From Candidatus Roizmanbacteria bacterium RIFCSPHIGHO2_12_FULL_37_23 (GTDB lineage: Bacteria > Patescibacteriota > Microgenomatia > UBA1406 > HO2-37-13b), in assembly GCA_001788095.1 (NCBI GenBank), contig MFZX01000031.1:9736-73735 (forward strand): a stretch of 64,000 nt of DNA. Reading direction: 5' to 3'. Each line of letters opens with the position of its first letter. Within the stretch, counting starts at the first letter, position 1. The notes below the pieces were generated by a model that worked only from the letters and a program-made list of their open reading frames with translations, made no database searches and was not told the origin of the DNA. Positions 10,484 through 57,601 of the stretch are shown one piece after another. A program made the position numbers and the translations under genes.

Positions 10484-10529
10484 TGTGGACTATTATATCA
10501 CACTACTTGTTTCATTAGCCTCAACCCTG

Positions 10530-10562
10530 CCTCAAATCCCACCTCGGGAGTGGGATTTGAGG
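10530..10562. repeat. R2 hairpin repeat: cctcaaatcccac-CTCGGGA-gtgggatttgagg (13-bp stem), downstream of the tatD stop
   Basis: Perfect palindrome. Copies also at 14283, 16901, 55680 and 57517. Confidence 0.6.
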
Positions 10563-10568
10563 CAAATA

Positions 10569-11485: not shown

Positions 11486-12412
11486 CTACGTTGCAGGATA
11501 ATCTACCACTTTTGGAGGGATATATGGAGCTTTTTTGATAAATGTATTCATAATTTGTGGTAAAAGACTAAAACCAATAATAAACATGACAACAGCGAGG
11601 AAATAACCAATAATCGAAAGTATTATCCATCCTTTAGGTCTCTCTATAACCTTTGGTATTTTCAACAAGGAATATATTTCATACATATAGCTTATGAGAA
11701 ATGGACCAAAGAAAATGGACAGTACAAAATTAATTGCATTGAGAACAGCGCTGTCGACTGAAGCAAGAGAAATAACAATTATATAAAACAACGCATATAT
11801 GAGAACCAACCGACCAGCAATTCCCCAAAATCTCTGATTAATAAGTGACCTACTTATCCATAGATTATCAAGTCCAATCTTTTGTTTCTCAATGAAAACA
11901 ATGACTGAAAAAGCATTCCAGAAAACCCAGAGAAAGAATATTAATCCAAGACTCATAATGCCAAATGGCACAAGTCCCAGAAGGAAAAGATTCAAAGCAA
12001 TATTAAACCACACAAATCCCCATACTCGAGGACGTGTTTTTTTATACGTATCAATAACACCAATATTTTCTTTTTGAATTATTATGGTTGTTAGCGTGAG
12101 TTGGGACCAAGAAACAAGATAAATGATGACGAGAGCCCCGTATATAATCCCAATAATTGCAAGAAACGCAATAATAATGGTCGATATTGTTGTTTTAAGA
12201 GTAAAAAGAACTGCTGCAAAAAGCCCGACAATGAGGAAAACGACGGCTATACCAACGAAAATAATAATATATTGGATTATTGCTGCGATAAGGAAACTTA
12301 GGAAGCGATCTTTGGTTCGTTGTAGAGCTTTTCGTATAAGATTTTCTATCTGCCAGGGGTTGTTGGTAGCCATACTAGATTTAGTATAAAAGAACTCTGT
12401 AAAGAATGTCAA
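11486..12412 (-). CDS. polytopic integral membrane protein, unknown function
   Basis: 308 aa, multiple hydrophobic helices. Confidence 0.45.
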   Translation of the reverse strand: MTFFTEFFYTKSSMATNNPWQIENLIRKALQRTKDRFLSFLIAAIIQYIIIFVGIAVVFLIVGLFAAVLFTLKTTISTIIIAFLAIIGIIYGALVIIYLVSWSQLTLTTIIIQKENIGVIDTYKKTRPRVWGFVWFNIALNLFLLGLVPFGIMSLGLIFFLWVFWNAFSVIVFIEKQKIGLDNLWISRSLINQRFWGIAGRLVLIYALFYIIVISLASVDSAVLNAINFVLSIFFGPFLISYMYEIYSLLKIPKVIERPKGWIILSIIGYFLAVVMFIIGFSLLPQIMNTFIKKAPYIPPKVVDYPAT

Positions 12413-12466
12413 TTATGTTTTCTAATGGTTTAGAATTCTGATAGAATGAGTTAGAATTACAATAAT

Positions 12467-13165
12467 ATGAAATGGAAAAGTAATATAACAAATCAGGTTC
12501 GATGGTCAGGTGATATCTCAAATAAAGAAAAAAAACAAGTAGTGGCTCAAAAAATTGCAGCACAGGTAAAAAACGGAGATATTATTGGAATAGGCTCAGG
12601 ATCAACCTCTTTCCTAGCACTCCAAGCTATAGGAGAACGGGTCCAAAAAGAAAATCTTTCGATAACTGCAATCACAACTTCATATGAGATGTTAATAACA
12701 TGCTCAGCACTCAATATTCCGACAACAACTCTTTTGCATGACCGACCAGATTGGTCTTTTGATGGTGCGGATGAAGTAGATCCAAACAATAACCTAATCA
12801 AAGGTCGCGGGGGTGCAATGTTTATTGAAAAAATTATGATTGTGAGCGCTCCAAAAACATTCATTCTTGTTGATGACACAAAGCTTGTTGAAAAGCTTGG
12901 AATAAAATTTCCTGTTCCTATTGAAATCTATCCTATGGCTATTAATGTTGTCGAAGAGAGACTTATGAAGATAGGAGCAAAAGAAATAGTGCTTAGACTT
13001 GCAAAGTCAAAAGATGGCCCAGTGATAACTGAAGGTGGAAATTTTATTCTTGATGTAAGATTTGAAAATATCGGAGATCAAACAGAGGTAGACATAAAGA
13101 AGATACCAGGAGTTATTGAATCAGGTCTATTTATAGGATATTCTGTAGAAGTCATCTCCACGTAG
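12467..13165 (+). CDS. rpiA: ribose-5-phosphate isomerase A
   Basis: GIGSGSTSFLALQAIGERV, DGADEVD..KGRGGA motifs. Confidence 0.8.
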   Translation: MKWKSNITNQVRWSGDISNKEKKQVVAQKIAAQVKNGDIIGIGSGSTSFLALQAIGERVQKENLSITAITTSYEMLITCSALNIPTTTLLHDRPDWSFDGADEVDPNNNLIKGRGGAMFIEKIMIVSAPKTFILVDDTKLVEKLGIKFPVPIEIYPMAINVVEERLMKIGAKEIVLRLAKSKDGPVITEGGNFILDVRFENIGDQTEVDIKKIPGVIESGLFIGYSVEVIST

Positions 13166-13170
13166 AATTA

Positions 13171-13196
13171 CCCAAGGTTGTTTAGATTCGTAACCT
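13171..13196 (+). repeat. R1 repeat, partial variant a, at the left edge of GC-rich island 1
   Basis: cccaaggttgtttagattcgtaacct. Confidence 0.4.
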
Positions 13197-14250
13197 GTTG
13201 CAGCTTTGATATGGTGTTGTCCGGGCAAGGAGCTTTTACGTCGTGAAGACGGTTTCCGCGAAGCGGTATAGCCACTTGCCCGAGACAAGCACCTTATGTA
13301 TCGGCTCGTGCCGAATTGTTGTGGAATCGCGATATCGCGCTAGGACAGCCGGCTGCCGCAGTGTACTTCCAGCTTCTTGAGGCTCCCTCCGCAGCCGTAG
13401 TGTGTCATGGTGTTCCAATCCACACCACTTGGGGGCACTGACTGGTGGCATCTGTTGCAGACGAAGTCTGCCACCACTTTGGCGCAACGATCGCCATCAT
13501 CCGGTCGGTCCACACTTCATTTCGTCGACCTCCTTTAGATCGCCGAACCGAAGGGTTGACTTGGATCCTCAGGCATCACACGCCTACCTGTTGTAATCCA
13601 AATCATGTCGTAGCTTCCGCACTCCGGACAAACCTTGAAGTGGTGCCGCCATACCTTTTGGCAATCTGGACACCGTATTATGAAGGGGCCTTGTCTGCTC
13701 CGGCCCTTTTGTTTCCTCCCTGGTCTTGGCATGAATACGAAGTCCTTTCTTTGGTTGGTTAGTCTCCTTTAAGAGACCAAGTCGTGATCGCAGAATACGG
13801 CTCTGCGCTCGCAGTGGCCTCCGCAGTCCGCATGGATGAGTGTGTCTACGACGAGATCTCCGTCATTGACATGCGCATAACACTTAGCGCATACCAGGGC
13901 GGGGATCCGCTGAAGACAAACACCCTGTTCGCGTTCTTGGTCACTCCTACGCTCACCGTGGATTGGACAATGCATGACCTGCTCCTTTCGCGTTTTCGCG
14001 ATGCTGACTCTTATGTCTACGGCGATACTCTGGCACAGTCTTTTGGTCGTGTCGTATGATGGATCTTCGTGTTGGTGAAACTTCAGTCTATTCTGAAGAG
14101 CATGTTCCAAACATCTGTATTTTCCACAGCATTCCATCGCAGATGGTATGCTGCTGTTTTTCTCTTGATTGATAGATTGTAGGCTTTAGTACAAACCTCC
14201 GCCTCTCTATCTCGATGTACGAACACATATAGAACCACGGGAACAAAAGA
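13197..14250. other. GC-rich island 1 (about 1.05 kb, clearly >50% GC): dense short GC hairpins, no convincing long CDS; candidate structured ncRNA or foreign-DNA remnant
   Basis: Abrupt composition shift. Many local palindromes (cgggcaag/cttgcccg, ccgcgaagcgg, cgcgatatcgcg, cagccggctg). Only short Cys-rich ORFs. Confidence 0.5.
13535..13732 (-). CDS. possible small zinc-ribbon protein (CPDC...CPEC)
   Basis: 65-aa ORF with two CxxC pairs. It lies inside the GC-rich island, so coding status is uncertain. Confidence 0.25.
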   Translation of the reverse strand: MPRPGRKQKGRSRQGPFIIRCPDCQKVWRHHFKVCPECGSYDMIWITTGRRVMPEDPSQPFGSAI

Positions 14251-14282
14251 TGAAAAGTTTATTAAAACTCCCGAAATTAGAC

Positions 14283-14313
14283 TCGAATCCCACTCCCGAG
14301 GTGGGATTTGAGG
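14283..14313. repeat. R2 hairpin repeat (opposite loop orientation) at the right edge of GC island 1
   Basis: ctcgaatcccac-TCCCGAG-gtgggatttgagg. Confidence 0.55.
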
Positions 14314-14548
14314 CAGAATTCATCCTCTATTTCCGTGACTCTATATAAATCTATCTTACGATTCCACAATGTGTTAAGGTGCTTTTTAAAAAATCCTATG
14401 AATCAATTATTCCCATGCGAAAAGGAAATAATGATTCAAAGAGTGAAACAATTATATTACTTGAGGCGAAGAATGTCAAAACTATGGGCTACAAAGTATA
14501 TACCAGTTGGAATGATTTATAATCAGTTATAATTTATTTTTAACAACG

Positions 14549-15250
14549 ATGCTTATCTACCCATCTATCCTTGAACCGACAGTTGACGACCTTTTTACCT
14601 ATCTTCAAACACTTTTTCCCGTCTTTAATCATTTCCAGATCGATATCGCAGATGGAAAGTTTGTACAAAGTAAAACCGTGCAGATAGAGGAAATAATAAA
14701 AAGTATTCAAAATTCAGACTTCAAAACCGAAAACAAAACATTTGAATTTCATCTTATGGTCAAAGATTATGAAAACGAGCTTAAGAAACTGGAGAAGCTT
14801 AAAGAGCGCGTGCGTATTCAACTGGTATTGATACATGTGGAAGCGCTTCAAAAGATACAAGCTATAAGCTCCAACTCGCAAATAACTCACAATCCGCAAT
14901 CTACAAATCACAGTTCGTTCGAACTCGGCCTTGCGCTCAACCCTGATACCTCAATTGAGTCCCACTGGCCGATCATACAACAACACACTACTGTCCAACT
15001 TATGACAGTCCATCCTGGACAACAAGGCTCCCCTTTTGTTCCTGAGGTTCTAGATAAAATCACTATTTTACGCGAAAAAGGTTTTAAAGGAGAAATTATT
15101 CTTGATGGTGCAATGAACGATAAAACGCTACCTATCATTCTTAGTAAGAAATATTGGCCAGACGCCATCTGTCCAGGAAGTTATTTTAAGCACAATCCAA
15201 AACAACAACTCGAGAAGTTGTCTAAAACAATCATTGACTATACAAGTTAA
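14549..15250 (+). CDS. rpe: ribulose-phosphate 3-epimerase-like (divergent)
   Basis: IYPSIL..VDDL, FQIDIADGKFV (compare HVDVMDGHFVPN), MTVHPGQQGSPF (compare M(S/T)VNPGFGGQKF), DGAMN. Confidence 0.5.
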   Translation: MLIYPSILEPTVDDLFTYLQTLFPVFNHFQIDIADGKFVQSKTVQIEEIIKSIQNSDFKTENKTFEFHLMVKDYENELKKLEKLKERVRIQLVLIHVEALQKIQAISSNSQITHNPQSTNHSSFELGLALNPDTSIESHWPIIQQHTTVQLMTVHPGQQGSPFVPEVLDKITILREKGFKGEIILDGAMNDKTLPIILSKKYWPDAICPGSYFKHNPKQQLEKLSKTIIDYTS

Positions 15251-16907
15251 GAATATCAGTTAAGCTAAACTGCCCATCCTGATTTTTATCAATTGGCCAC
15301 AGGGTATTCGCTTCCTCAATGTTTTCTCCCGGAGCAAAATGCATAAACCATTGTTGTGGCAAACTACCTTCTGCTATTAATACACACCGATACTCGTCAA
15401 CGAAGTTTACGCCTTCCACATGCTCAATTACTAATCTTCCAGCTTTAATCTGGCCGTTTTCGCGCGCTACGATTTGTTCGTTTTTATCAAAACACTGAAC
15501 CTCGGCGTTGGCTAATTCGACTTGGCCAGTAGGATAGCGTAAATCTGGAAACTCAAGAATTGGGGCTTGGTGAATACACGGTGTCCATTCAGCAAGCTCG
15601 AGAACAACTCGACCTTTTCGAGCTAATCCAAACCTTAATGTAGGACAACCCACCGTTCTCCCCGGATTCATGGTAAAAGTTGTCTTAAGCTCTTTTCCTG
15701 GCAAAACAATGTGGAAATCTGAAAAAGAATACTCAAATGACGGTCCAAGCAATACAAGCTCATATTCACCTCGGCGGATTGCATCGGTGCTTTTGTTTAT
15801 GAGAGAAATCTCTGTGGAAAAATCGAGGTTTTCAGCAAGATCGCGAACAAATGTGCCTGTTGTTGTTGCTCCAAAAGTAAATTCTGGCTCACCGACAATC
15901 TTTTGAGAAGAATATATAAATTCTCCTAATGGTGTCCGACTTTTATCTGAACAATTAACCATGGAGAAAGACGCAAAATTTCCATCACAGGCATTATATG
16001 TAAAAATATTGAACGATAATAACTTTTCGTCCTTTTCCCAAGCTGATATCGCTTTTTGTATATTTGCAAGTGTTTCTTCTCCAGTATCCCCACCTGTCTC
16101 AGTAACTATAACATTCATGCCAAGTGCATGATCGACACCAATTTGAAATAAATATTTCTTTTCAGCAATATAACTAGAGATAAGAGGACCGCCAAACATA
16201 TTATGGCCATTAAAATACGTATGAGTAGCAAGCGTTGAGACATTGTTAAAAATTGTTGGCTGGGCATTCAAAAGCTCTCGATAAAAAATCTTAGCATCGC
16301 AAAAAGTTGGAGGTCTATGCGGTGAGGCTTTATCAACTGGAGCTACCATAACTTCTGCATCTTTATCGACCTCAAGAATTTTTTGTTTCGTTATCTCAAA
16401 CCACTGTGCATATGCTGGAATATTACCTAAGCAATCTCCAGCGAGTTCATCACCCCTATTAAGTTCGTTTCCAAGTTGGTAATACCCATGCGATGGAGCA
16501 CGTGTGTTTTTGATAACATTTACGATGTATTCGGTTGTGCTCTCAGTTGGTAATTGCCAATTCCCACCATCATCGATATTCGTGGCAAAACGGATGATAT
16601 AAAGACACTTCTCTTCAAATGCAATATTGTATTCAGCTTGCAAATCCTCTGGTTTCATCTCTCCTTCTCGAATAACACGTACAAGACTTCCCCACTCTCC
16701 ACTATTTGCATTTACTGTTCTACATGCCTGACGAATTTCATCATGCGTCGGAGAGATAAGATGAGCGCCGTAAATATTCCGTGGTCGTCCTTGAGCCAAT
16801 ACATGTGGTGTTAAAAAAAGGGTACAAGCCATCAAAAACAGTAAAGCAATATATTTTCTCATATTACATATTATACATTGAGTATTGAGTATCGCTGACA
16901 TTCCCAC
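15231..16907 (-). CDS. secreted glycoside hydrolase, clan GH-A-like (GH5-type)
   Basis: Signal peptide. GNELN (acid/base NE) and VIVTETGG (nucleophile E) motifs spaced as in (beta/alpha)8 GH-A enzymes. Confidence 0.45.
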   Translation of the reverse strand: MGMSAILNTQCIICNMRKYIALLFLMACTLFLTPHVLAQGRPRNIYGAHLISPTHDEIRQACRTVNANSGEWGSLVRVIREGEMKPEDLQAEYNIAFEEKCLYIIRFATNIDDGGNWQLPTESTTEYIVNVIKNTRAPSHGYYQLGNELNRGDELAGDCLGNIPAYAQWFEITKQKILEVDKDAEVMVAPVDKASPHRPPTFCDAKIFYRELLNAQPTIFNNVSTLATHTYFNGHNMFGGPLISSYIAEKKYLFQIGVDHALGMNVIVTETGGDTGEETLANIQKAISAWEKDEKLLSFNIFTYNACDGNFASFSMVNCSDKSRTPLGEFIYSSQKIVGEPEFTFGATTTGTFVRDLAENLDFSTEISLINKSTDAIRRGEYELVLLGPSFEYSFSDFHIVLPGKELKTTFTMNPGRTVGCPTLRFGLARKGRVVLELAEWTPCIHQAPILEFPDLRYPTGQVELANAEVQCFDKNEQIVARENGQIKAGRLVIEHVEGVNFVDEYRCVLIAEGSLPQQWFMHFAPGENIEEANTLWPIDKNQDGQFSLTDILNLYSQ

Positions 16908-16927
16908 TCCCGAGGTGGGATTTGAGG
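16901..16927. repeat. R2 hairpin repeat in the divergent promoter region between the GH gene and PBP2
   Basis: ttcccac-TCCCGAG-gtgggatttgagg. Confidence 0.5.
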
Positions 16928-16961
16928 CTAAATTTTAAAAAGTTAATGTTTTTTTAATCTT

Positions 16962-26288: not shown

Positions 26289-26501
26289 AGTTGATACATG
26301 TCTACGAATTGACTTTTCACAACCTTCTATAGTATATTACCTATTATAGGATTATTTTTTGGTGGCATGATTGCGTTTTTCGCACGTGCTGCGTTCTTCG
26401 CGCTCATGCCGCACTTTGAAAGAAACGGCAATTGATATACGAGATACTACTTGCATACGTCTCGTGTGTAGGGTCGAATTGTGGGAAGAATATACCACTA
26501 T

Positions 26502-26580
26502 TGTCATCCTGAATCCGCCTACTGGCGGAATTCAGGATCTCGATTATTCCCGGAATCCGACCCTTCACACCGAATGGTGT
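26502..26580. repeat. second copy of the MITE terminal hairpin (tgtcatcctgaat-ccgcctactggcgga-attcaggatctcga), reverse orientation relative to 3384-3396
   Basis: Matches the reverse complement of 3350-3396. Confidence 0.45.
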
Positions 26581-26672
26581 GTGTAAGTGGTATTAGTGCA
26601 AGGAGAGGAGGTATACAACCAAATACCCGAAGGTCCCGCTAGGGACCCGTATCTGCTGTCATCCGCATCCCC

Positions 26673-27302
26673 GTGAGGGGAAACCCGAAGGAGACGGCCT
26701 TGAGACTCAGGTTCCTCACGCTACTGCTTGCAGTAGCACTCGTGACCACGTTGGCGGCGGCCGCAGCTCCCATGCTCGCGAGCGCCCCGAACGTCAACGA
26801 GACGACGATGGCGAACGCACGCGCGCCTGCTGCGTGGACCAACGACTCCGTGGGGATGAACGACAGGGCGACTTTCGCAAGGATGAGCGCGTCTCGCGCG
26901 GATCCGGTGCCGATCGTGGCCTTCAGCTCGTCGATCTCCGGCCAGGGCATGGTGTACGAGAGCCTGCGGGGCTACACGACTTCGAACGACGAGATCAACG
27001 GCACCGTCTACGCGACGAACGACGGCCGAGCGATCTACATCTACGACCAGAACGCGCTGAGCTCGACGACAACCGCACGGAACGGCACCGCGGCGTGGAC
27101 GAGCGAGAACACGAACGGAACGGCGACGGTGAGCGCTACTGCATGGTCTGATGACCACTACGTAAGGATGAGCCAGCTGGCGCTGAAGATGCCTACCTTC
27201 ACGGCCGACTTCGTGGCGAACGGCGCGACGGCTCGCGTGACCCCCTGGCGGACTGACCAGGTGGCGATCGCGGCAGTGGTGACGGTGGAGCAGCTGCTCT
27301 AG
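26673..27302 (+). CDS. secreted protein with signal peptide and many N-glycosylation sequons; haloarchaeal-like composition (GTG start likely)
   Basis: LLLAVALVTTLAAAAAP signal. NETT, NDSV, NGTV, NGTA sequons. Acidic, Thr/Ala-rich. Confidence 0.4.
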   Translation: MRGNPKETALRLRFLTLLLAVALVTTLAAAAAPMLASAPNVNETTMANARAPAAWTNDSVGMNDRATFARMSASRADPVPIVAFSSSISGQGMVYESLRGYTTSNDEINGTVYATNDGRAIYIYDQNALSSTTTARNGTAAWTSENTNGTATVSATAWSDDHYVRMSQLALKMPTFTADFVANGATARVTPWRTDQVAIAAVVTVEQLL

Positions 27303-27348
27303 CACACGATCAGGAGCGCTGATCTCCGCTGACCTCCTCCAGTAGTTA

Positions 27349-27410
27349 GGGACCGTCCCGGGCCAGTGGCCCTTGACGCGCCGGTTCTCGGTACACGCCG
27401 GGACGGTCCC
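27349..27410. repeat. 13-bp perfect inverted repeat gggaccgtcccgg / ccgggacggtccc with 36-nt spacer
   Basis: Read directly from sequence. Confidence 0.6.
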
Positions 27411-27531
27411 CGAGGAGTTTCATCGAGTAAAATGCATTCATCAGCATTCATCCTCCCCGGCCCCCCGCTCAAGTGCAACACCACTGAGCCAACAACGGAC
27501 TGGGCACCGTTGGATTGGGGGACCATTTGTA

Positions 27532-27603
27532 CCCGGCAGGCCGCTTGGACGCGGAGAGATCGCTCGCGCGATCAATTTGTTCCGTTGAGAACGGCCTGCC
27601 GGG
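27532..27603. repeat. 12-bp perfect inverted repeat cccggcaggccg / cggcctgccggg with 48-nt spacer
   Basis: Read directly from sequence. Confidence 0.6.
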
Positions 27604-27875
27604 AAAACTTTCGGCCAGATGGCGATGACAGGATCAGAAGCCTGCAATAACGCTTACTCGTTCGGCACGAAACGGAACGCCTCCCTTTCGCGTCGACTGG
27701 CTGAGTCGGCTTCTGAGACATCACACGCTGCGCGCGTGCGTTCACTATAGTCAAGCTCGTGCACAGTTTCATCTGAAACTGGCTTGACAAGACTCTGGTC
27801 TCGCGCGCTTCTATCTTTCGACGGGAGATAGAAAGACCAGGGTCTGGTTTCACAGACTCGTATATCAACAGAAAA

Positions 27876-27918
27876 CCCCGATGCAATCGGGGGCCGCTCG
27901 TCACGTATGTGACTTTTT
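27876..27918 (+). terminator. tandem hairpins ccccgat-gcaa-tcgggg and gtcac-gtat-gtgac followed by TTTTT
   Basis: Read directly from sequence. Confidence 0.5.
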
Positions 27919-28075
27919 GATAATTCCCTTCTTTGGGTTTTATTGATTTTTCGCGTGTGTGCGAGCGGTGCCGTTTCTGTTGTTTCTTTTTACATCCTTC
28001 CGTTTGACCTTCCTTATTTGCTTTTCATTAATTGCTTTTCATTAATTGTTTTTCTTTATTTGCTTTTTTCTAATT

Positions 28076-28250: not shown

Positions 28251-28689
28251 GGAAGTTGAATGATATAATAATATGTTTTCCGTCCTATGGGACGGCTTTA
28301 TTTTAAGCAATCCTCAAGCGTAGACATGTATTTTGCTATATGTTGTATGCTCTAGGATAAAGCTCTTTAACAAAACGCACAATAGCAAGAACCTTTTTCC
28401 GTATTTATAGTTGAATAAGTGGGGCCTGTCTCGCTCTCCCTCCCAGCCGGTGCTCCCTCGACACGAGTCGAGGTCCGCTCCGTCGGGAGACCCTTCCGAG
28501 CGAGCCACCCACACAGCGGTATAAATCACTTCAATTATAGATCTGGAAAAAGGTTCTCATATGCCCAAGAGGAGGTGATGAAAACGGGCGCATGTCCCAA
28601 GTCGCAGTTTCTGAGAACCACTGCAAAACCACCTTACCCGCCTTTCGACCTCAGGTCGAAAACACGAACGCCAAGGAGTAGTTAGACAC

Positions 28690-28956
28690 ATGGACGCGAC
28701 CGAGACCGTGTTGGATGATCGTGACGACGGCGAGCGCGAGCCCAGCGACGAGCCCGAGGAGACGGACGGCGATCCCGAGGACGGCGAGGAGACCGACGGC
28801 GACGGCGACGGCGGCGAGACCGGCGACGAGGACGAGCCCGGCGACGAGGAGCCCGAGGACCCGGACGAGGGCGACGACGGTGTCGAGACCGGCGAGGAGA
28901 CCGACGGCGACGGCGGCGAGACCGATCCCGAGGTCCGCCACGAGGAGGACGACTAG
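28690..28956 (+). CDS. extremely acidic small protein (D/E/G/T-rich, 88 aa), haloarchaeal or halovirus-like
   Basis: MDATETVLDDRDDGEREPSDEPEETDGDPEDGEETDGDGDGGETGDEDEPGDEEP... Confidence 0.35.
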   Translation: MDATETVLDDRDDGEREPSDEPEETDGDPEDGEETDGDGDGGETGDEDEPGDEEPEDPDEGDDGVETGEETDGDGGETDPEVRHEEDD

Positions 28957-29167
28957 CGGTGCCGGTCTTCGGCTCTAACAGAGGGGTCTTCGATCCCCAG
29001 GAGACTGCCCTTTCTCACAACGGACCTTGGGGTTACGGGATCCCACACGACCCACCGCGCGACACGTCGCACAAGGACAAGGGTGACAAGCCCGAGAACG
29101 AAGGCGACGACGACCGCGCCACAACCAACTAACCACCGCCGCTTGAGCCACCCGGCTTGAGCTAGTA

Positions 29168-29240
29168 GGGCGGGACCGCCGGTCCCCAGTCCTCCACAGG
29201 TCTGCTGGCAAACCAACCAGCTCACCCGGCGGTCCCGCCC
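29168..29240. repeat. 15-bp perfect inverted repeat gggcgggaccgccgg / ccggcggtcccgccc with 43-nt spacer
   Basis: Read directly; the motif gggcgggacc recurs at 29352. Confidence 0.6.
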
Positions 29241-29305
29241 GTCGCTATCATATTTCGGCACATGCCGAATCCCTGCCCCACGTAAGCGCCGGTTTCCTGG
29301 GCCAC

Positions 29306-29378
29306 AGGGAGCCACCAAACACGCAAGCTCTGGCTTGCAAACGGTTTCTGGGGCGGGACCGGTGTTTGGTGGCTCCCT
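29306..29378. repeat. 17-bp perfect inverted repeat agggagccaccaaacac / gtgtttggtggctccct with 39-nt spacer containing an inner hairpin gcaag-ctctgg-cttgc; lies at the GC-island / AT-rich boundary
   Basis: Read directly from sequence. Confidence 0.6.
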
Positions 29379-29532
29379 TGGGGGCTTTGCTATTTGTGCT
29401 GCACGACACCGAAGGGTTTACGAGATACTGGCAAGAGTTTGTTTCTTGCTTTTTTGTTTTTTTTGTTTTGTATCTTGTTGTTTGTTTGTCCCTTTGGTGT
29501 CGTGTGTTGTAGTTTTAATCATATCTTAATCT

Positions 29533-30654
29533 TTGTCTGCTATTATCTTTCCCATGTCAGACCAAACCCCTTACTACGTCGCCTTCTCATATATGCTGGG
29601 TATTGGGCCTGTTCATTTTGCACAACTTATGCAACGTTTTGGAGATCCAAAATCTGCATATCAAGCAACAACAAAAGATCTTTATAAAATTTTAGGAAGA
29701 AATCTCGCGGAAAAATTTGATACCTTCAGAAAAAAATGTATACCTCATAGTATAGTAAAATACTTGTTAACAAAAAATGTACAAATATTACACCAAGGAT
29801 CTTCATATTACCCAAAAAAACTCGTTCATATACCTGATCCTCCTATTTGTTTATATCTTAGAGGAAATATAAATATCCTACATGAACATCCTGATGATTT
29901 CATAGCAATTGTTGGTACACGAAAACCTAGTTCATATGGCAAAGAGACTACACGACAATGTGTGAAATTATTATGCGAATATGACTATACCATTATTTCT
30001 GGGATGGCTTTAGGGATTGACAGCATAGCCCATTCCTGCGCATTAGACAATGGAGGAAAAACAATAGCTGTCTTAGGATGCGGAATTGAAGTAGTATATC
30101 CCCACCAAAATACACACTTATTTAAAAGGATTTTAGATTGTAATGGCGCTGTTATAAGTGAATTTCCTCCTCCGATGACCACGATGAAAGGTCTTTTTGT
30201 TTCACGCAATCGTATTGTTTCTGGTCTTTCTAAGGCTGTCATTGTCGTAGAGGGTACAGAAAAATCAGGAACTCTCATAACTGCGCGTTATGCAGCAGAA
30301 CAAGGGAGAGACGTCTTTGCAATCCCAGGTGAAATAAATTCTCCCCTCTCTAGAGCCCCAAACTTACTTATTAAAAACGGGGCTACGATCATTACTTCTC
30401 CCCAAGATATTCTTGAATCATACAACACTGAGATAAAAAGTCATGTTCGAAAAACTATCTTAAACTCTGTGGATGCACATGAAAAAATGGTTCTTGAACA
30501 ACTCATCCATGAATCTTCATATATCGACACCATTGCCCGCACAGTGAATATGCCAATTCCACACATAACAAGCATACTTACATCACTTGAAATCAAGGGA
30601 TTTATTGCAAAAAACGATAAAGGAGAATATTATATAACGAATGGATATACGTAA
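29533..30654 (+). CDS. dprA: DNA processing protein A (DprA/Smf)
   Basis: Rossmann-like DprA core: VISGMALGIDSIAHSCALDNGGKTIAVLGCGIEVVYP...; C-terminal winged helix. Confidence 0.8.
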   Translation: MSAIIFPMSDQTPYYVAFSYMLGIGPVHFAQLMQRFGDPKSAYQATTKDLYKILGRNLAEKFDTFRKKCIPHSIVKYLLTKNVQILHQGSSYYPKKLVHIPDPPICLYLRGNINILHEHPDDFIAIVGTRKPSSYGKETTRQCVKLLCEYDYTIISGMALGIDSIAHSCALDNGGKTIAVLGCGIEVVYPHQNTHLFKRILDCNGAVISEFPPPMTTMKGLFVSRNRIVSGLSKAVIVVEGTEKSGTLITARYAAEQGRDVFAIPGEINSPLSRAPNLLIKNGATIITSPQDILESYNTEIKSHVRKTILNSVDAHEKMVLEQLIHESSYIDTIARTVNMPIPHITSILTSLEIKGFIAKNDKGEYYITNGYT

Positions 30655-52336: not shown

Positions 52337-52503
52337 GATACTACTTCGGAGCGATATAACCTTATACTACGGGACAATTTTGATATAATAATACCGCTCT
52401 TTGAAAAAGCGGGATTCTTGTTGGTGATTGGTGTAGTTGGCCGAGTTAGTTAATTCGTCCGTACATAGCTCGTAATGAGCTCTACACCCAGAAGGAGAGT
52501 TCG

Positions 52504-53109
52504 ATGTCCACTGTGGTCGCGTTGTTCCTGGCCTATTTCCTCGGTGCGATCCCGTGGGGGATCGTATTTTGCCGGCTGGCAAACGGTCGTGATCCGAGAG
52601 AGCACGGATCCAGCCGAACCGGAGGAACAAACGTCTACAGGACGTCTGGGCCTATCCCAGCTATACTCACCGTTGGGTTTGATGTTGCCAAGGGCTATGC
52701 TGCCGTCATTTTGGCAAGCCAGCTCTCCGGCGGAAGCCCGATCGTGATCTCACTCGCCGCAGTGCTCGCAATAGCCGGGCACAACTGGTCCGTCTTCGCC
52801 GGTTTCAAAGGGGGTGCCGGAACGACGCCGAACGTTGGTGCCTTACTGGCGATCTTCCCCCAAATGGTCGTAGTCGCGCTTGGGCTCAGCGCGATTACAC
52901 TGATCATTTGGAGACAAGCGTCGCGAGCGACCATCATCAACTCTCTCGCGACCACAGGTGCAACTGGCGGTCTCGCGTTGTTAGTTTCCCCTGCCTATCT
53001 ACTTTACGGCGTAGGACAGCTTGCACTAGTGCTCTACGCGCTGTATCAGGGGGGGAACCTTCGGCGCCTGATCCACGGAAACGAAATCCGAGCTGAGCGG
53101 ATTAGGTAG
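52504..53109 (+). CDS. plsY: glycerol-3-phosphate acyltransferase PlsY (acyl-phosphate dependent)
   Basis: GAIPWG, GSSRTGGTNVYR (compare GSGNPGATN), HNWSVFAGFKGGAGTTP (compare H-x-x-S-x-F-x-x-FKGGKGVAT). Confidence 0.75.
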   Translation: MSTVVALFLAYFLGAIPWGIVFCRLANGRDPREHGSSRTGGTNVYRTSGPIPAILTVGFDVAKGYAAVILASQLSGGSPIVISLAAVLAIAGHNWSVFAGFKGGAGTTPNVGALLAIFPQMVVVALGLSAITLIIWRQASRATIINSLATTGATGGLALLVSPAYLLYGVGQLALVLYALYQGGNLRRLIHGNEIRAERIR

Positions 53110-53117
53110 CTCTACCA

Positions 53118-53324
53118 ATGGTCCTAGGAAGGACTACGATGATGACAAAAAAACCTGACGACTCCGAGGCTTCAACCACACCAGTAGTACCGACACGGTG
53201 TATGTCCACAGACACGTGTCCGCACTGCGACGCGTTTTGCTGCAAAGATGGTCACAGTCTGATGGACAATCATCGTTGTCCCAATGGGCACGAGTGGGAA
53301 GCAGCACCTTCCTTGTTGATCTGA
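53118..53324 (+). CDS. possible small Cys/His-rich metal-binding protein
   Basis: CMSTDTCPHCDAFCCKDGHSLMDNHRCPNGHEW; GC-rich; coding status uncertain. Confidence 0.25.
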   Translation: MVLGRTTMMTKKPDDSEASTTPVVPTRCMSTDTCPHCDAFCCKDGHSLMDNHRCPNGHEWEAAPSLLI

Positions 53325-53560
53325 TGAGATCCCGCTGTACGTCTCGCTGAGGCTAGCAGACGCTAAAACAACATATGGGTAAAAGCCTTTCGAGGTGACA
53401 AGAGTGATGAAGTACTCATCGTGGAATCCGATCGCAGAAGCAAGCGATCCTGCGTTAGCGATAACGCACTACCACGACAATCACCTTGCTCACCGAGAAT
53501 ACCCATATGAAAATTTTTAATTTCTAATTTTTATTCAATTATTAATTACGCTCTATCTGC

Positions 53561-53571: not shown

Positions 53572-53641
53572 CGCGGGGTAGTGTACGGTAGCACAGGAGG
53601 CTCATAATCTCCTAGACCAGGTTCAACTCCCGGCCCCGCAA
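53572..53641 (+). tRNA. tRNA-Met (anticodon CAT at 53603-53605); C1/A72 mismatch suggests initiator tRNA
   Basis: Manual cloverleaf: acceptor cgcgggg/ccccgca, U8, D-stem gtgt/gcac, anticodon stem ggagg/tctcc with loop cTCATAa, T-arm ccagg-ttcaact-cccgg (one mismatch), discriminator A. Length 70 nt. Confidence 0.55.
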
Positions 53642-53646
53642 CACGA

Positions 53647-55630: not shown

Positions 55631-55679
55631 ATAAAACTATTATACTATAGGATTATCTATATTGCAAACCTCATATTAG

Positions 55680-55712
55680 CCTCAAATCCCACCTCGGGAG
55701 TGGGATTTGAGC
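55680..55712. repeat. R2 hairpin repeat; a partial second half-site lies at 55746-55760
   Basis: cctcaaatcccac-CTCGGGA-gtgggatttgagC. Confidence 0.55.
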
Positions 55713-55785
55713 GTGATTTTAAGTAATTTTATTTAATTTTAATTTGAGTGGGATTTGAGGTCGGGCTGATGTCAAACTTATGAGG

Positions 55786-56056: not shown

Positions 56057-57505
56057 ATGGATATATTTTCTTTACACAAACTAACCCTCACTACGAAAAC
56101 CCTCTCTTTAATAACAATCGTCTTTATCTTCCTCGCGTTCTGGTATAAAACTTCCATATTTCTTGATCCTGACTTTGGCTGGGAGATACGTATGGGACAA
56201 TATATTTTAAAAAACGGTATTCCATACACCGATCCGCTCTCCTACACTATGCCAAGCTACCCCATAATCGCACATTACTGGCTTAGTAGCAGCCTTATTA
56301 CACGAATTTATCCTGTCTTCGGATATGTCGGTCTTGCTGGTATTGTTTCTTGCTTTTCTTTACTTGCCATGCTTATTCTTGTCCCCCGAAAAGGATTTTC
56401 ACTTAGCCTCATTCCTCTCTTACTAGCTACTTCTGGACTTTTTTCATATGCAAGCGTACGACCACATTTTTTTACCTGGCTTTTCCTCGCTTTCATATTT
56501 CGAATTACTACCGATAAAATGTTATGGAAAAAATACTGTTGGTATATCCCTCTTCTTTTTATACTTTGGACTAATATACATGGGGGCTTTGCAGCGGGCC
56601 TTTTCTTAATCTTAATTAAGCTCATCGTTGATGCATGGCATGAGAAAAAAATAAATAAACAAATCGCGCTTATCAGCACCCTTTCAATCGTTGCTACATT
56701 TATTAATCCTTATGGAATATATGTGTGGAGAGAAATATTTATCACCATCTTCGATCCTGGAACACGGATAGGAATAAACGAATGGCAACCATTTATTTCT
56801 CGATTATCGCTCATCCACGCGCCTGTATTAGTGTTACCGCTTGTACTTTTTGCTCGATACTTCCGCTCATTCACACTTTTAGAAAAATGTTTTTTCGTGA
56901 TACTTCTCATTAATGGTTTTTCAAGCAGTAAGATGTACCCCATGTGGCTTCTCTACAGCATATATTTCTCAACAAAAGGACTTCTGTTTCTAACATACGA
57001 AGTAAAAAACAATAAAATTGCATCGCAGAAACTTAATATTATTCTATCTTGCCTCCTGATTATTGCAGGCACATATACTTCCACGTATGGTTTTCGGGTT
57101 TATACGATTTATAAACAACTATCTGAAGAGAGATTTTATCCCAAAAAAGCGGTTGAATTTATAAAATTACATCCTACTCAAGGCCATATTTTTAGCTCAT
57201 TTTCGTGGGGAGGATACGTGTTATGGAAACTGCCCGAGCATAAAACGTTTGTAGATGGAAGAATGCCACATTGGGAAAATCAAAATGCTTCAAATTCTGA
57301 AAGTAAAAAGGCAATAGATGATTTCCAAAAAATTCTTAAAACTGAACTCGCATTTGATAATATAGCTTCAAAATATACAATTGATACACTGCTTCTTCCG
57401 AAAGAATACCGGAAGAAATTCAAAAAGTTCTTCCTAGCTCTTAAAAAAGACGATTGGAAGACTATCTACAAAGACGATATATCAGTCATCTTAAGGAAAG
57501 ATTAA
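56057..57505 (+). CDS. polytopic membrane protein (GT-C-like glycosyltransferase candidate)
   Basis: 482 aa, more than 10 TM helices, directly upstream of the GT2 DPM-synthase-like gene. Confidence 0.4.
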   Translation: MDIFSLHKLTLTTKTLSLITIVFIFLAFWYKTSIFLDPDFGWEIRMGQYILKNGIPYTDPLSYTMPSYPIIAHYWLSSSLITRIYPVFGYVGLAGIVSCFSLLAMLILVPRKGFSLSLIPLLLATSGLFSYASVRPHFFTWLFLAFIFRITTDKMLWKKYCWYIPLLFILWTNIHGGFAAGLFLILIKLIVDAWHEKKINKQIALISTLSIVATFINPYGIYVWREIFITIFDPGTRIGINEWQPFISRLSLIHAPVLVLPLVLFARYFRSFTLLEKCFFVILLINGFSSSKMYPMWLLYSIYFSTKGLLFLTYEVKNNKIASQKLNIILSCLLIIAGTYTSTYGFRVYTIYKQLSEERFYPKKAVEFIKLHPTQGHIFSSFSWGGYVLWKLPEHKTFVDGRMPHWENQNASNSESKKAIDDFQKILKTELAFDNIASKYTIDTLLLPKEYRKKFKKFFLALKKDDWKTIYKDDISVILRKD

Positions 57506-57516
57506 CCTCAACTTAG

Positions 57517-57549
57517 CCTCAAATCCCACCTCGGGAGTGGGATTTGAGG
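57517..57549. repeat. R2 hairpin repeat after the membrane protein gene
   Basis: cctcaaatcccac-CTCGGGA-gtgggatttgagg. Confidence 0.55.
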
Positions 57550-57601
57550 CTAGAGCATGGGCATGCAACCTTAGAGGCTGACAATATGCTACAATATCCG
57601 T

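Follow-up and report, generated by a model that had tools for sequence, protein, structure and literature searches.

What is encoded in the GC-rich gap between rpiA and rpe on contig MFZX01000031.1 of Candidatus Roizmanbacteria (assembly GCA_001788095.1), a member of the candidate phyla radiation (CPR)? We addressed this question in a 64,000-nt stretch of that contig, here called the window, to which all coordinates refer. An earlier note, made from the letters alone, had described the gap as about 1.05 kb of apparently non-coding, hairpin-dense DNA and had suggested either a large structured non-coding RNA (ncRNA) or a decayed foreign insertion. Our analysis favors a third explanation. The island would be a minus-strand operon of ~1.2 kb (~14444 to ~13210) that encodes three small Cys/His-rich proteins, is bracketed by pairing between the 5' and 3' ends of its RNA, and carries exchangeable GC-rich cassettes. 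We put the probability of this reading, which rests on sequence comparison and structure prediction, at about 60%.

Small zinc-ribbon genes in place of a structured RNA

The segment from 13212 to 14050 has a GC content of 54.4%, compared with 39.4% for the whole window. In windows of 50-200 nt the GC fraction climbs from ~0.35 to 0.50-0.64 between ~13200 and ~14050, with a 50-nt peak of 0.64. A value of 54% is reached in just 3.4% of 840-nt windows, and the remainder of these come from three other GC-rich islands. The compositional jump reported earlier is real; the length of ~1.05 kb is not, as the GC-rich part spans ~840 nt and 14050-14250 is back at ~41%. The statement that no open reading frame (ORF) in the segment exceeds 122 aa was borne out. 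The non-coding label, however, fails, because the segment holds three tandem small genes on the minus strand, each with a Shine-Dalgarno (SD) site. The Cys-rich candidates do lie on the minus strand, as had been noted, but they follow one another in a single shared reading frame instead of overlapping. The best-supported genes are the two Cys-rich ORFs that had been dismissed, ahead of the zinc-ribbon ORF that had been put forward.

The first gene of the operon, Cys68, encodes 68 residues. Four observations place its start: all homologs begin with M(K)KCPxHG, which corresponds to Met55 of the 122-aa ORF; an AAGGAG (13987-13982) precedes the Cys68 start by 6 nt; the GC content drops upstream of it; and an indel in the same upstream region shifts the frame in the variant P0003. 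Because of these features, Cys68 (13975-13769) is the true gene, and the 122-aa ORF was rejected as an N-terminally over-extended reading of it.

The third gene, Cys57, is a paralog of Cys68. The two proteins share 27% identity (BLASTP E 8e-7), with the Cys and His residues of the shared core in register. A profile built from both and run against 1.84 billion representatives retrieved P0009, P0010 and P0012 (E 5e-13 to 1e-4). A second, alignment-based search added the homolog P0014, and a locus search added two further loci with Cys68 homologs, L029 and L030. In six family sequences the columns C20, C29, C32, H48, C51, G52, G53 and C62 are invariant. The family pattern, C-x8/9-C-x2-C-x15/16-H-x2-C-G-G-x8-C, is found in proteins of ~57-108 aa, and the Cys/His spacing is unchanged at identities of 27-57%. 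Between P0010 and P0014 we counted 21 synonymous and 14 non-synonymous differences over 70 codons, giving a ratio of non-synonymous to synonymous substitution rates (dN/dS) of 0.13, with dN 0.091 and dS 0.68; more distant pairs of Cys68 homologs are saturated at synonymous sites. The AlphaFold model of Cys68, computed on the six-sequence alignment, reached a predicted local distance difference test (pLDDT) score of 93.5. The nearest relative of Cys57 is P0012 of locus L026, from a different lineage (38% identity, E 1.7e-4), which implies two or more old branches of the family. Cys68 and Cys57 constitute a previously undescribed family of small proteins under purifying selection, with a predicted fold of the zinc-ribbon type.

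Searches of annotated collections did not place the family. Pfam, NCBIfam, PHROGs and PADLOC contain no family for the island proteins of any lineage, and the Cys68/Cys57 ligand pattern with its additional N-terminal CPxHG is absent from all four. Viral collections held no relative of Cys68, and Foldseek found no significant neighbor of the Cys68 model in the PDB or BFVD, the nearest being YdjO and the zinc knuckles of MetRS and LeuRS. In general terms, the island proteins of 57-68 aa resemble bL32, eL40 and Bacillus subtilis YdjO, with which they share paired CxxC/CxxH ligands and a predicted beta-hairpin zinc-knuckle fold. No match to these small zinc-ribbon proteins is significant or at a curated cut-off, and that of the Cys68 profile to eL40 is weak (E 0.019). 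For Roizmanbacteria or CPR, a literature search likewise returned nothing on either small zinc-ribbon proteins or GC-rich islands.

The start of Cys57 is unusual. Its SD sequence, AAGGAGG (13535-13529), overlaps the stop codon of the preceding gene, and the GTG start codon lies 13 nt away from it. At the ideal spacing, 8 nt from the same AAGGAGG, is the ATG of a 7-codon upstream ORF (uORF), MKCGPTG* (13520-13497, minus strand), which resembles the homolog start MKKCPTHG and is in a different frame from Cys57. It looks like the trace left when a deletion or frameshift took away the N-terminal CPxHG module, or else like a regulatory uORF. We also weighed a fusion of the uORF with Cys57 through programmed +1 frameshifting at GGA-UGA, which is unlikely because the P site would offer poor re-pairing.

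Between the two paralogs lies ZnR65. All of its top 23 PDB sequence matches are bL32 (best E 9e-4), with MPRPGRKQKGRSR...CPDC-x10-CPECGSY aligning to residues 21-51 of 50S L32 chains in PDB entries such as 4v7p. ZnR65 has the C-x2-C...C-x2-C ribbon of bL32, the G-x-Y that follows it and a basic N-terminal arm. Its arm is shorter than that of bL32, with ~7 to 13 residues missing between the basic N-terminus and the ribbon, and its scores fall below the curated bL32 cut-offs (TIGR01031, 18.5 bits versus 22.6; PF01783, 16.5 versus 21.3). We found no homolog of ZnR65 in the relatives, in a word-indexed search of 5.8 billion proteins or in a viral scan. A viral "match" proved to be an 8-residue coincidence, CPDCQKVW, in an unrelated 128-aa ORF, and the 64-kb window holds no other L32-like ORF. 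The earlier suggestion of a genuine small protein is plausible, given the SD-like site and PDB matches that are all bL32, and on these sequence features ZnR65 is probably a real gene.

The coding evidence bears directly on the ncRNA proposed at first, a large structured molecule of the OLE, GOLLD or ROOL kind, or of intron or ribozyme type, that would be GC-rich through its structure. GC-rich islands in AT-rich genomes are often structured RNAs, and as a kilobase-scale GC-rich intergenic block in an AT-rich genome the locus resembles OLE, GOLLD, ROOL and HEARO; it also contains a highly stable three-way hairpin, together with a long-range helix between the 5' and 3' ends. Unlike those RNAs, it has neither a covariance-model match nor excess stability, and it evolves like a protein. 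Rfam searches of 12000-15500 on both strands at E<=10 gave only chance-level matches of 9-18.5 bits to unrelated eukaryotic and plastid families. At the gathering score, the single Rfam hit in the whole window is a tRNA-Met, and a search for tmRNA found none. Minimum free energy z-scores (150-nt windows, dinucleotide shuffles, both strands) range from +1.2 to -2.4 across 13275-14100, so that the impression of a segment packed with GC stems is an effect of composition. Only 13200-13350 stands out in the scan (z -4.0/-4.9), and it holds the three-way hairpin. Comparison with relatives, a check that the earlier note had itself named, came out as coding: the protein-coding segment alone aligns, synonymous changes are in excess, the Cys/His spacing is invariant, and unrelated genes replace the interior in close relatives. 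The ncRNA reading is largely refuted, and we consider it very improbable. Conserved features of RNA type do exist, namely the bracket helix and the three-way hairpin, but they frame an mRNA and do not make up a stand-alone ncRNA. The lesson is that a GC-rich segment without a long ORF in an AT-rich genome is not in itself a sign of structured RNA.

Predicted pairing of the transcript ends, and flanking hairpins

The genes are enclosed by two complementary boxes, one in the 5' untranslated region (UTR) and one in the 3' UTR (Table 1). The 3' box is the reverse complement of the 5' box and lies just past the last stop codon. Each consists of two half-boxes, and these are collinear and form the two best long-range inverted repeats in 13100-14560. 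An equivalent pair flanks the islands of two related loci, where it is the top long-range pair (L027) or among the top ones (L029). The segment GCACCTTAACA is identical in the window, L027, L029 and L026, and in all four lineages the 5' box reads GCACCTTAACA(N0-3)TTGYRGAAT. The motif occurs nowhere else in the 64-kb window and was not found in viral collections.

Table 1. Positions of the features of the island and its borders in the window.
Feature	Position	Strand	Details
Spacer with degenerate R1 dispersed repeat	13166-13212		Between rpiA stop codon and hairpin; family D6, 62% identity
Three-way hairpin	13213-13293		Long outer stem enclosing two small hairpins; z -5.06 (plus), -5.77 (minus)
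3'-UTR bracket box	13329-13287	minus	CGATTCCACAA 13329-13319, 22-nt mini-hairpin, TAAGGTGCTT 13296-13287
Cys57 gene	13513-13340	minus	57 aa, paralog of Cys68, GTG start
ZnR65 gene	13732-13535	minus	65 aa, CPDC...CPEC zinc ribbon, basic N-terminus; GAAAGGA 10 nt upstream of ATG
Cys68 gene	13975-13769	minus	68 aa, predicted zinc-binding, MHCPIHG...C-x8-C-x2-C-x15-H-x2-CGG-x8-C
AT-richer 5' leader	13976-14279	minus	43% GC; spurious 122-aa extension, SD AAGGAG; ordinary z-scores
5'-UTR bracket box	14384-14359	minus	AAGCACCTTA 14384-14375, linker ACACA, TTGTGGAATCG 14369-14359
Promoter-proximal leader hairpin	stem 14438-14424 with 14414-14399, then U6 run 14393-14388	minus	z -3.4 to -4.5
Sigma-70-type promoter into island	-35 14479-14474, -10 14456-14451	minus	TTGACA-17 nt-TATAAT
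R2 copies (five in window)	10527-10567, 14276-14316, 16902-16934, 55673-55724, 57505-57552

Compensatory changes preserve the complementarity of the boxes in four lineages. In a hand-built alignment of the joined boxes, 89% of cells pair, whereas sliding the partner leaves no more than 49%. Compensatory double changes occur at four pairs, as in TGTGGAA/TTCCACA, TGTAGAA/TTCTACA and TGCGGAA/TTCCGCA. Cofolding gave the same two-helix junction in four lineages, with ddG values of -12.5 to -21 kcal/mol. On the sense strand, the helices of L027 and L029 have only G.U mismatches, apart from a terminal A.A in helix B of L029. A blind 5'-3' search in the style of RNAduplex was uninformative, as unrestricted interior loops dominated it. 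Within the boxes, the 3' half-box UAAGGUG (13287-13296) is SD-like, while the 5' half-box CACCUUA (14375-14384) is reminiscent of the anti-SD tail of 16S rRNA. Nothing else in the locus is as conserved as GCACCTTAACA, which is shared without change by four lineages with protein identities of 35-57%; this suggests a sequence-specific role in addition to pairing.

The same inverted repeats could instead act on DNA, with the same genes between them. They might bound an invertible segment that is switched on or off relative to the outside promoter, or form the terminal inverted repeats of a non-autonomous mobile element. The split repeat of ~26 nt flanks ~1.0 kb, here as well as in L027 and L029, and a consensus promoter lies outside it and reads inward; covariation of the arms would also be expected if one recombinase recognized both. 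The in-helix mismatches argue the other way, since a G.U is a pair in RNA and a mismatch in DNA. Further points against a DNA-level role are that the boundaries of the inverted repeat and of the composition do not coincide, that no recombinase or transposase lies within ~5 kb, that no target-site duplication was found, and that the motif is unique in the window and hence not part of a dispersed family.

Directly past the 3' box lies the three-way hairpin. L027 and L029 have a hairpin of the same architecture at the same position, with unrelated sequence and a z-score of -9.0, and L026 has a long hairpin at that place (z -7.9). In the window, the hairpin separates the operon from the convergent rpiA and is probably the terminator.

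At the other end, the promoter matches all 12 of 12 consensus positions, whereas two other promoter-like sites in 13000-14700 score 9/12. The corresponding sequence of L027 and L029, read by eye, is TTGCAG-17-TATAAT with a TGG in front; it lies ~70 nt upstream of the 5' box of each. The apical part of the leader hairpin (AUUUCC...GGGA) recurs in the leaders of L027 and L029, where it is not significantly stable. The hairpin with its U6 run could be a 5' stabilizer or an attenuator.

Two further observations concern the reading frames of this leader and of the genes. The spurious extension of the 122-aa ORF contains CCGKYRC (14088-14137, minus strand), and the 69-aa ORF of L029 and L024 contains CCGIFRC (L029 5812-5832). 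Possibly the window motif is what remains of a fourth small gene in the leader, a reading supported by an 11-residue match. Cys68, ZnR65 and Cys57 (13340-14185, minus strand) share one frame, with single stops between them: TAA, then TAA plus TGA. In L029 likewise, the frame of the upstream 69-aa ORF continues past a single TGA into the next gene, labelled CysR. We treated the shared frame as a coincidence, with a chance of ~1 in 9. Alternative codes, with TGA, TAG or TAA read as sense, gave no convincing longer protein and revealed nothing but this shared frame.

A conserved frame with an exchanged interior

The island is present on strain contigs as well as in related genomes. Public assemblies contain the exact RpiA protein encoded next to it in 58 indexed blocks, with contigs of up to 174 kb, and seven strain contigs that we compared with the window (L001, L002, L018-L020, L022 and L028) show zero differences inside the island. 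This identity on all strain contigs compared, together with the 58 blocks, indicates that the island is not an assembly artefact. The absence of any variant inside it on L001, L002 and L018-L022 also made a strain-level analysis of single-nucleotide polymorphisms and covariation uninformative.

In related genomes, L027 (4.9 kb) and L029/L030 (a 14-kb contig) show the order PBP2, a 543-aa gene, rpe, GC-rich island and rpiB. The order in the window is rpiA, island, rpe, a 558-aa gene and PBP2, with TatD and a membrane protein as further neighbors. Identity to the window is 58-74% for flank proteins, 58% for rpe and 57% for the Cys68 homolog. RpiA (12467-13165) is convergent with the operon and has a host-like GC content of 36%, while the relatives carry an unrelated, tandem RpiB (L027 3915-4352, L029 6711-7148). 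The change from rpiA to rpiB at the island border is a non-orthologous replacement. In a species-genome collection, the window RpiA has no close relative; it is closest to Bacteroidota (58%), and Patescibacteria proteins reach 43-45%.

Inside this frame the gene content differs. The window carries Cys68, ZnR65 and Cys57. L029 carries a 69-aa Cys-rich ORF, CysR and a 94-aa membrane protein with a Cys/His motif, whereas L027 has a 68-aa membrane protein followed by CysR. L026, which adjoins an NAGPA gene, has CysR, a 64-aa ORF and a 69-aa membrane protein. A comparison of L027 with L029 gives flank identities of 89% and 94%; the interior reaches 75% over CysR and is non-homologous elsewhere. L024 and L029 are 89% identical through CysR; a clean replacement of the second gene follows, and then 100% identity. 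Between the window and its relatives, the whole intergenic regions align at the DNA level only at the Cys68 gene. Relatives keep the bracket and flanks, and it is the interior genes that diverge more rapidly or give way to others.

One accessory cassette gene shows a nonsense variant: L023 (225-431) encodes a 68-aa two-helix membrane protein, and in L027 (3129-3395) an in-frame TAG takes the place of a CAG (Gln) and interrupts the gene. The GC-rich upstream region conserved among L023, L024, L027 and L029 was considered as an RNA; its consensus fold is weak (-16 kcal/mol), and in L029 it is better explained as the 69-aa Cys-rich ORF.

The GC content at third codon positions (GC3) is 0.55-0.71 in the island, compared with 0.25-0.37 in host genes. 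It is well above that of the host in most island genes of four lineages, being only modestly higher in the 64-aa ORF of L026. The high GC3 persists although synonymous sites between the window and its relatives are saturated. Cassette exchange would account for such a non-host composition at an old locus.

This composition also bears on the proposal of a decaying foreign fragment whose ORFs would be remnants or chance products with no present function. Besides the non-host codon usage, such decay could explain why three ORFs in one frame, separated by single stops, can be read as one broken gene, why ZnR65 is an orphan, why Cys57 may have lost its N-terminal module and why NCBI annotates no gene. 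The purifying selection on Cys68 homologs, with ligand spacing invariant at low identity, argues against it, as do the confident AlphaFold model, the separate SD site of each ORF, the L029 ORFs that are not all in one frame, the synteny of the locus in relatives and the identical island on the strain contigs examined. We therefore regard decay as improbable. Of the insertion suggested earlier, the foreign-like GC3 and the mosaic interior stand, and the decay does not. Deviant composition would suit a recent acquisition; an empty site in relatives, its other mark, is lacking, as L027 and L029/L030 carry the island there.

The replaced interior invites comparison with genomic islands and cassette loci. 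Deviant composition, a fixed site between housekeeping genes, a conserved frame, a replaced interior and inverted repeats at the borders are common to both. The locus differs from them in having no integrase, invertase, transposase, attC cores, direct repeats or tRNA at the island, and a search for mobility genes or direct repeats at its borders found none. It also differs from cassette loci in that its core gene is about as conserved as rpe (57% versus 58%). An integron-like cassette array without integrase (CALIN), in which the hairpins would be attC sites, would account for small, promoterless-looking genes in one orientation, a 3' hairpin, non-host composition and the precise replacement of one gene between strains. 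The hairpins, however, lack RYYYAAC/GTTRRRY cores (sequences read by eye), there is one branched hairpin per array instead of one per cassette, no integrase is nearby, and the cassette exchanged between L024 and L029 is not bounded by hairpins. We find this explanation hardly credible.

Several assemblies contain short contigs that consist of the island alone and end at its borders: L023 (911 nt), L024 (791 nt) and L025 (554 nt). Such contigs would be expected if a sample contains the island in several strains or next to different flanks. They, and the mosaic interior between close relatives, are also what a DNA-level role of the inverted repeats could produce. In all three syntenic lineages, however, the genes diverge from rpe; the seven strain contigs are collinear with the window; and synteny holds across genomes whose flank proteins are only 58-74% identical. 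Invertible or mobile behavior is thus unlikely, although we give it more weight than decay.

The borders of the island also carry dispersed repeats. The R1 repeat reported at the left is only a weak match to its family, at 13166-13207. Strain L028, which is 98.4% identical over 3.1 kb, differs from the window solely at 13173-13212 (L028 2190-2245) and holds a fuller R1 copy of the CAACCTTAGAGGTTG...AACCTTGGG family at that spacer. As this is the only difference, the turnover of R1 copies, by gain, loss or erosion, is very rapid. The R2 hairpin reported at the right is a true dispersed repeat, although the copy there, at 14280-14314, falls just beyond the 14250 given as the end of the segment. 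R2 (GCCTCAAATCCCACCTCGGGAGTGGGATTTGAGGC) is a palindromic repeat similar to repetitive extragenic palindromes (REP-like) that lies at gene ends in both orientations. The copy near the island belongs to families D4/D5 and forms inverted repeats with other copies, to which it is 93-95% complementary. The copy that begins at 14276 sits within the 5' leader of the island operon.

The three other GC-rich islands of the window (26500-28000, 28400-29450 and 52450-53350; 52-64% GC) contain orphan or odd genes. Among them are an ORF of 209 aa (26673-27302), the N-terminus of which resembles a signal peptide, and an ORF of 88 aa with Asp/Glu/Gly-rich repeats (28690-28956). A 68-aa Cys-rich ORF (53118-53324) stands between a GC-rich plsY (52504-53109) and a tRNA-Met (53572-53642). 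The Cys-rich ORF was considered as a family member and is unrelated to Cys68 or Cys57. No Pfam match was found in these islands, nor any Rfam match even at permissive thresholds, PlsY (NCBIfam) being the only family recognized. The largest GC-rich island adjoins dprA (29533-30654), which encodes the DNA-processing protein of natural transformation.

A working model and its implications

In the operon model that we favor, the boxes would pair in the mRNA to form an interrupted duplex of 21 bp that closes the transcript into a loop. The loop could control processing or stability of the transcript, for example as an RNase III-type substrate or by protecting its ends, and transcription of the operon and of the convergent rpiA would both end at the three-way hairpin. 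The conserved frame could serve as homology arms through which the GC-rich interior cassettes are exchanged by recombination. As a best guess, the island proteins may be cytoplasmic zinc-ribbon binders of nucleic acid or of the translation or transcription machinery.

Pairing of transcript ends has known counterparts. In icaR of Staphylococcus aureus, the 3' UTR pairs with the Shine-Dalgarno region (PMC3868564). Like icaR and the RNase III stalks of rRNA, the island transcript has ends that are complementary over ~21 bp with an internal loop, kept by compensatory change, and the length and shape of the duplex would fit a substrate of a double-strand-specific nuclease. Unlike in icaR, the ribosome-binding site is not masked, and unlike in the stalks flanking rRNA, the enclosed RNA is a three-gene mRNA.

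Several points weigh against the model. The 5' box lies ~370 nt upstream of the first SD (13987-13982) and covers no ribosome-binding site. Helix A is not evident in L026, and the bracket draws on four lineages and on an alignment built by hand from the observed complementarity, which DNA-level inverted repeats would show as well, covariation included. The leader hairpin with its U-run could stop transcription before the genes. Among the genes, ZnR65 appears to be an orphan and falls short of the bL32 thresholds, and Cys57, with its distant GTG start and without the N-terminal CPxHG module, may be a damaged copy. Searches with the predicted fold yield no functional lead. Finally, NCBI annotates no gene in the island, the accessions of RpiA and the Rpe-like protein being consecutive.

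A more far-reaching version of the model is a long shot, less likely than invertible or mobile DNA but above decay in our estimate. Here the outside promoter, 5' box, 3' box and terminator hairpin would together form a dedicated expression platform, in which small-gene cassettes are swapped among CPR by homologous recombination and the mRNA is controlled by circularizing 5'-3' pairing. If true, this would amount to an integron-like cassette system without integrase or attC, fed for example by natural DNA uptake, and the other GC-rich islands of orphan genes in the genome could be further instances. The cassette-like behavior is unusual for a CPR genome, while the other parts fit known kinds, namely small zinc-ribbon proteins and an mRNA paired end to end.

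Small proteins are systematically missed in CPR genomes. In this case, an unannotated stretch becomes three probable small-protein genes, including a new predicted zinc-binding family without a relative in Pfam, the PDB or viral structures. In genomes as tiny as those of CPR, each gene that is kept says something about an episymbiotic lifestyle. With its conserved frame and an interior of foreign composition, the island offers a testable example of how a CPR genome may host and regulate accessory genes with fast turnover.

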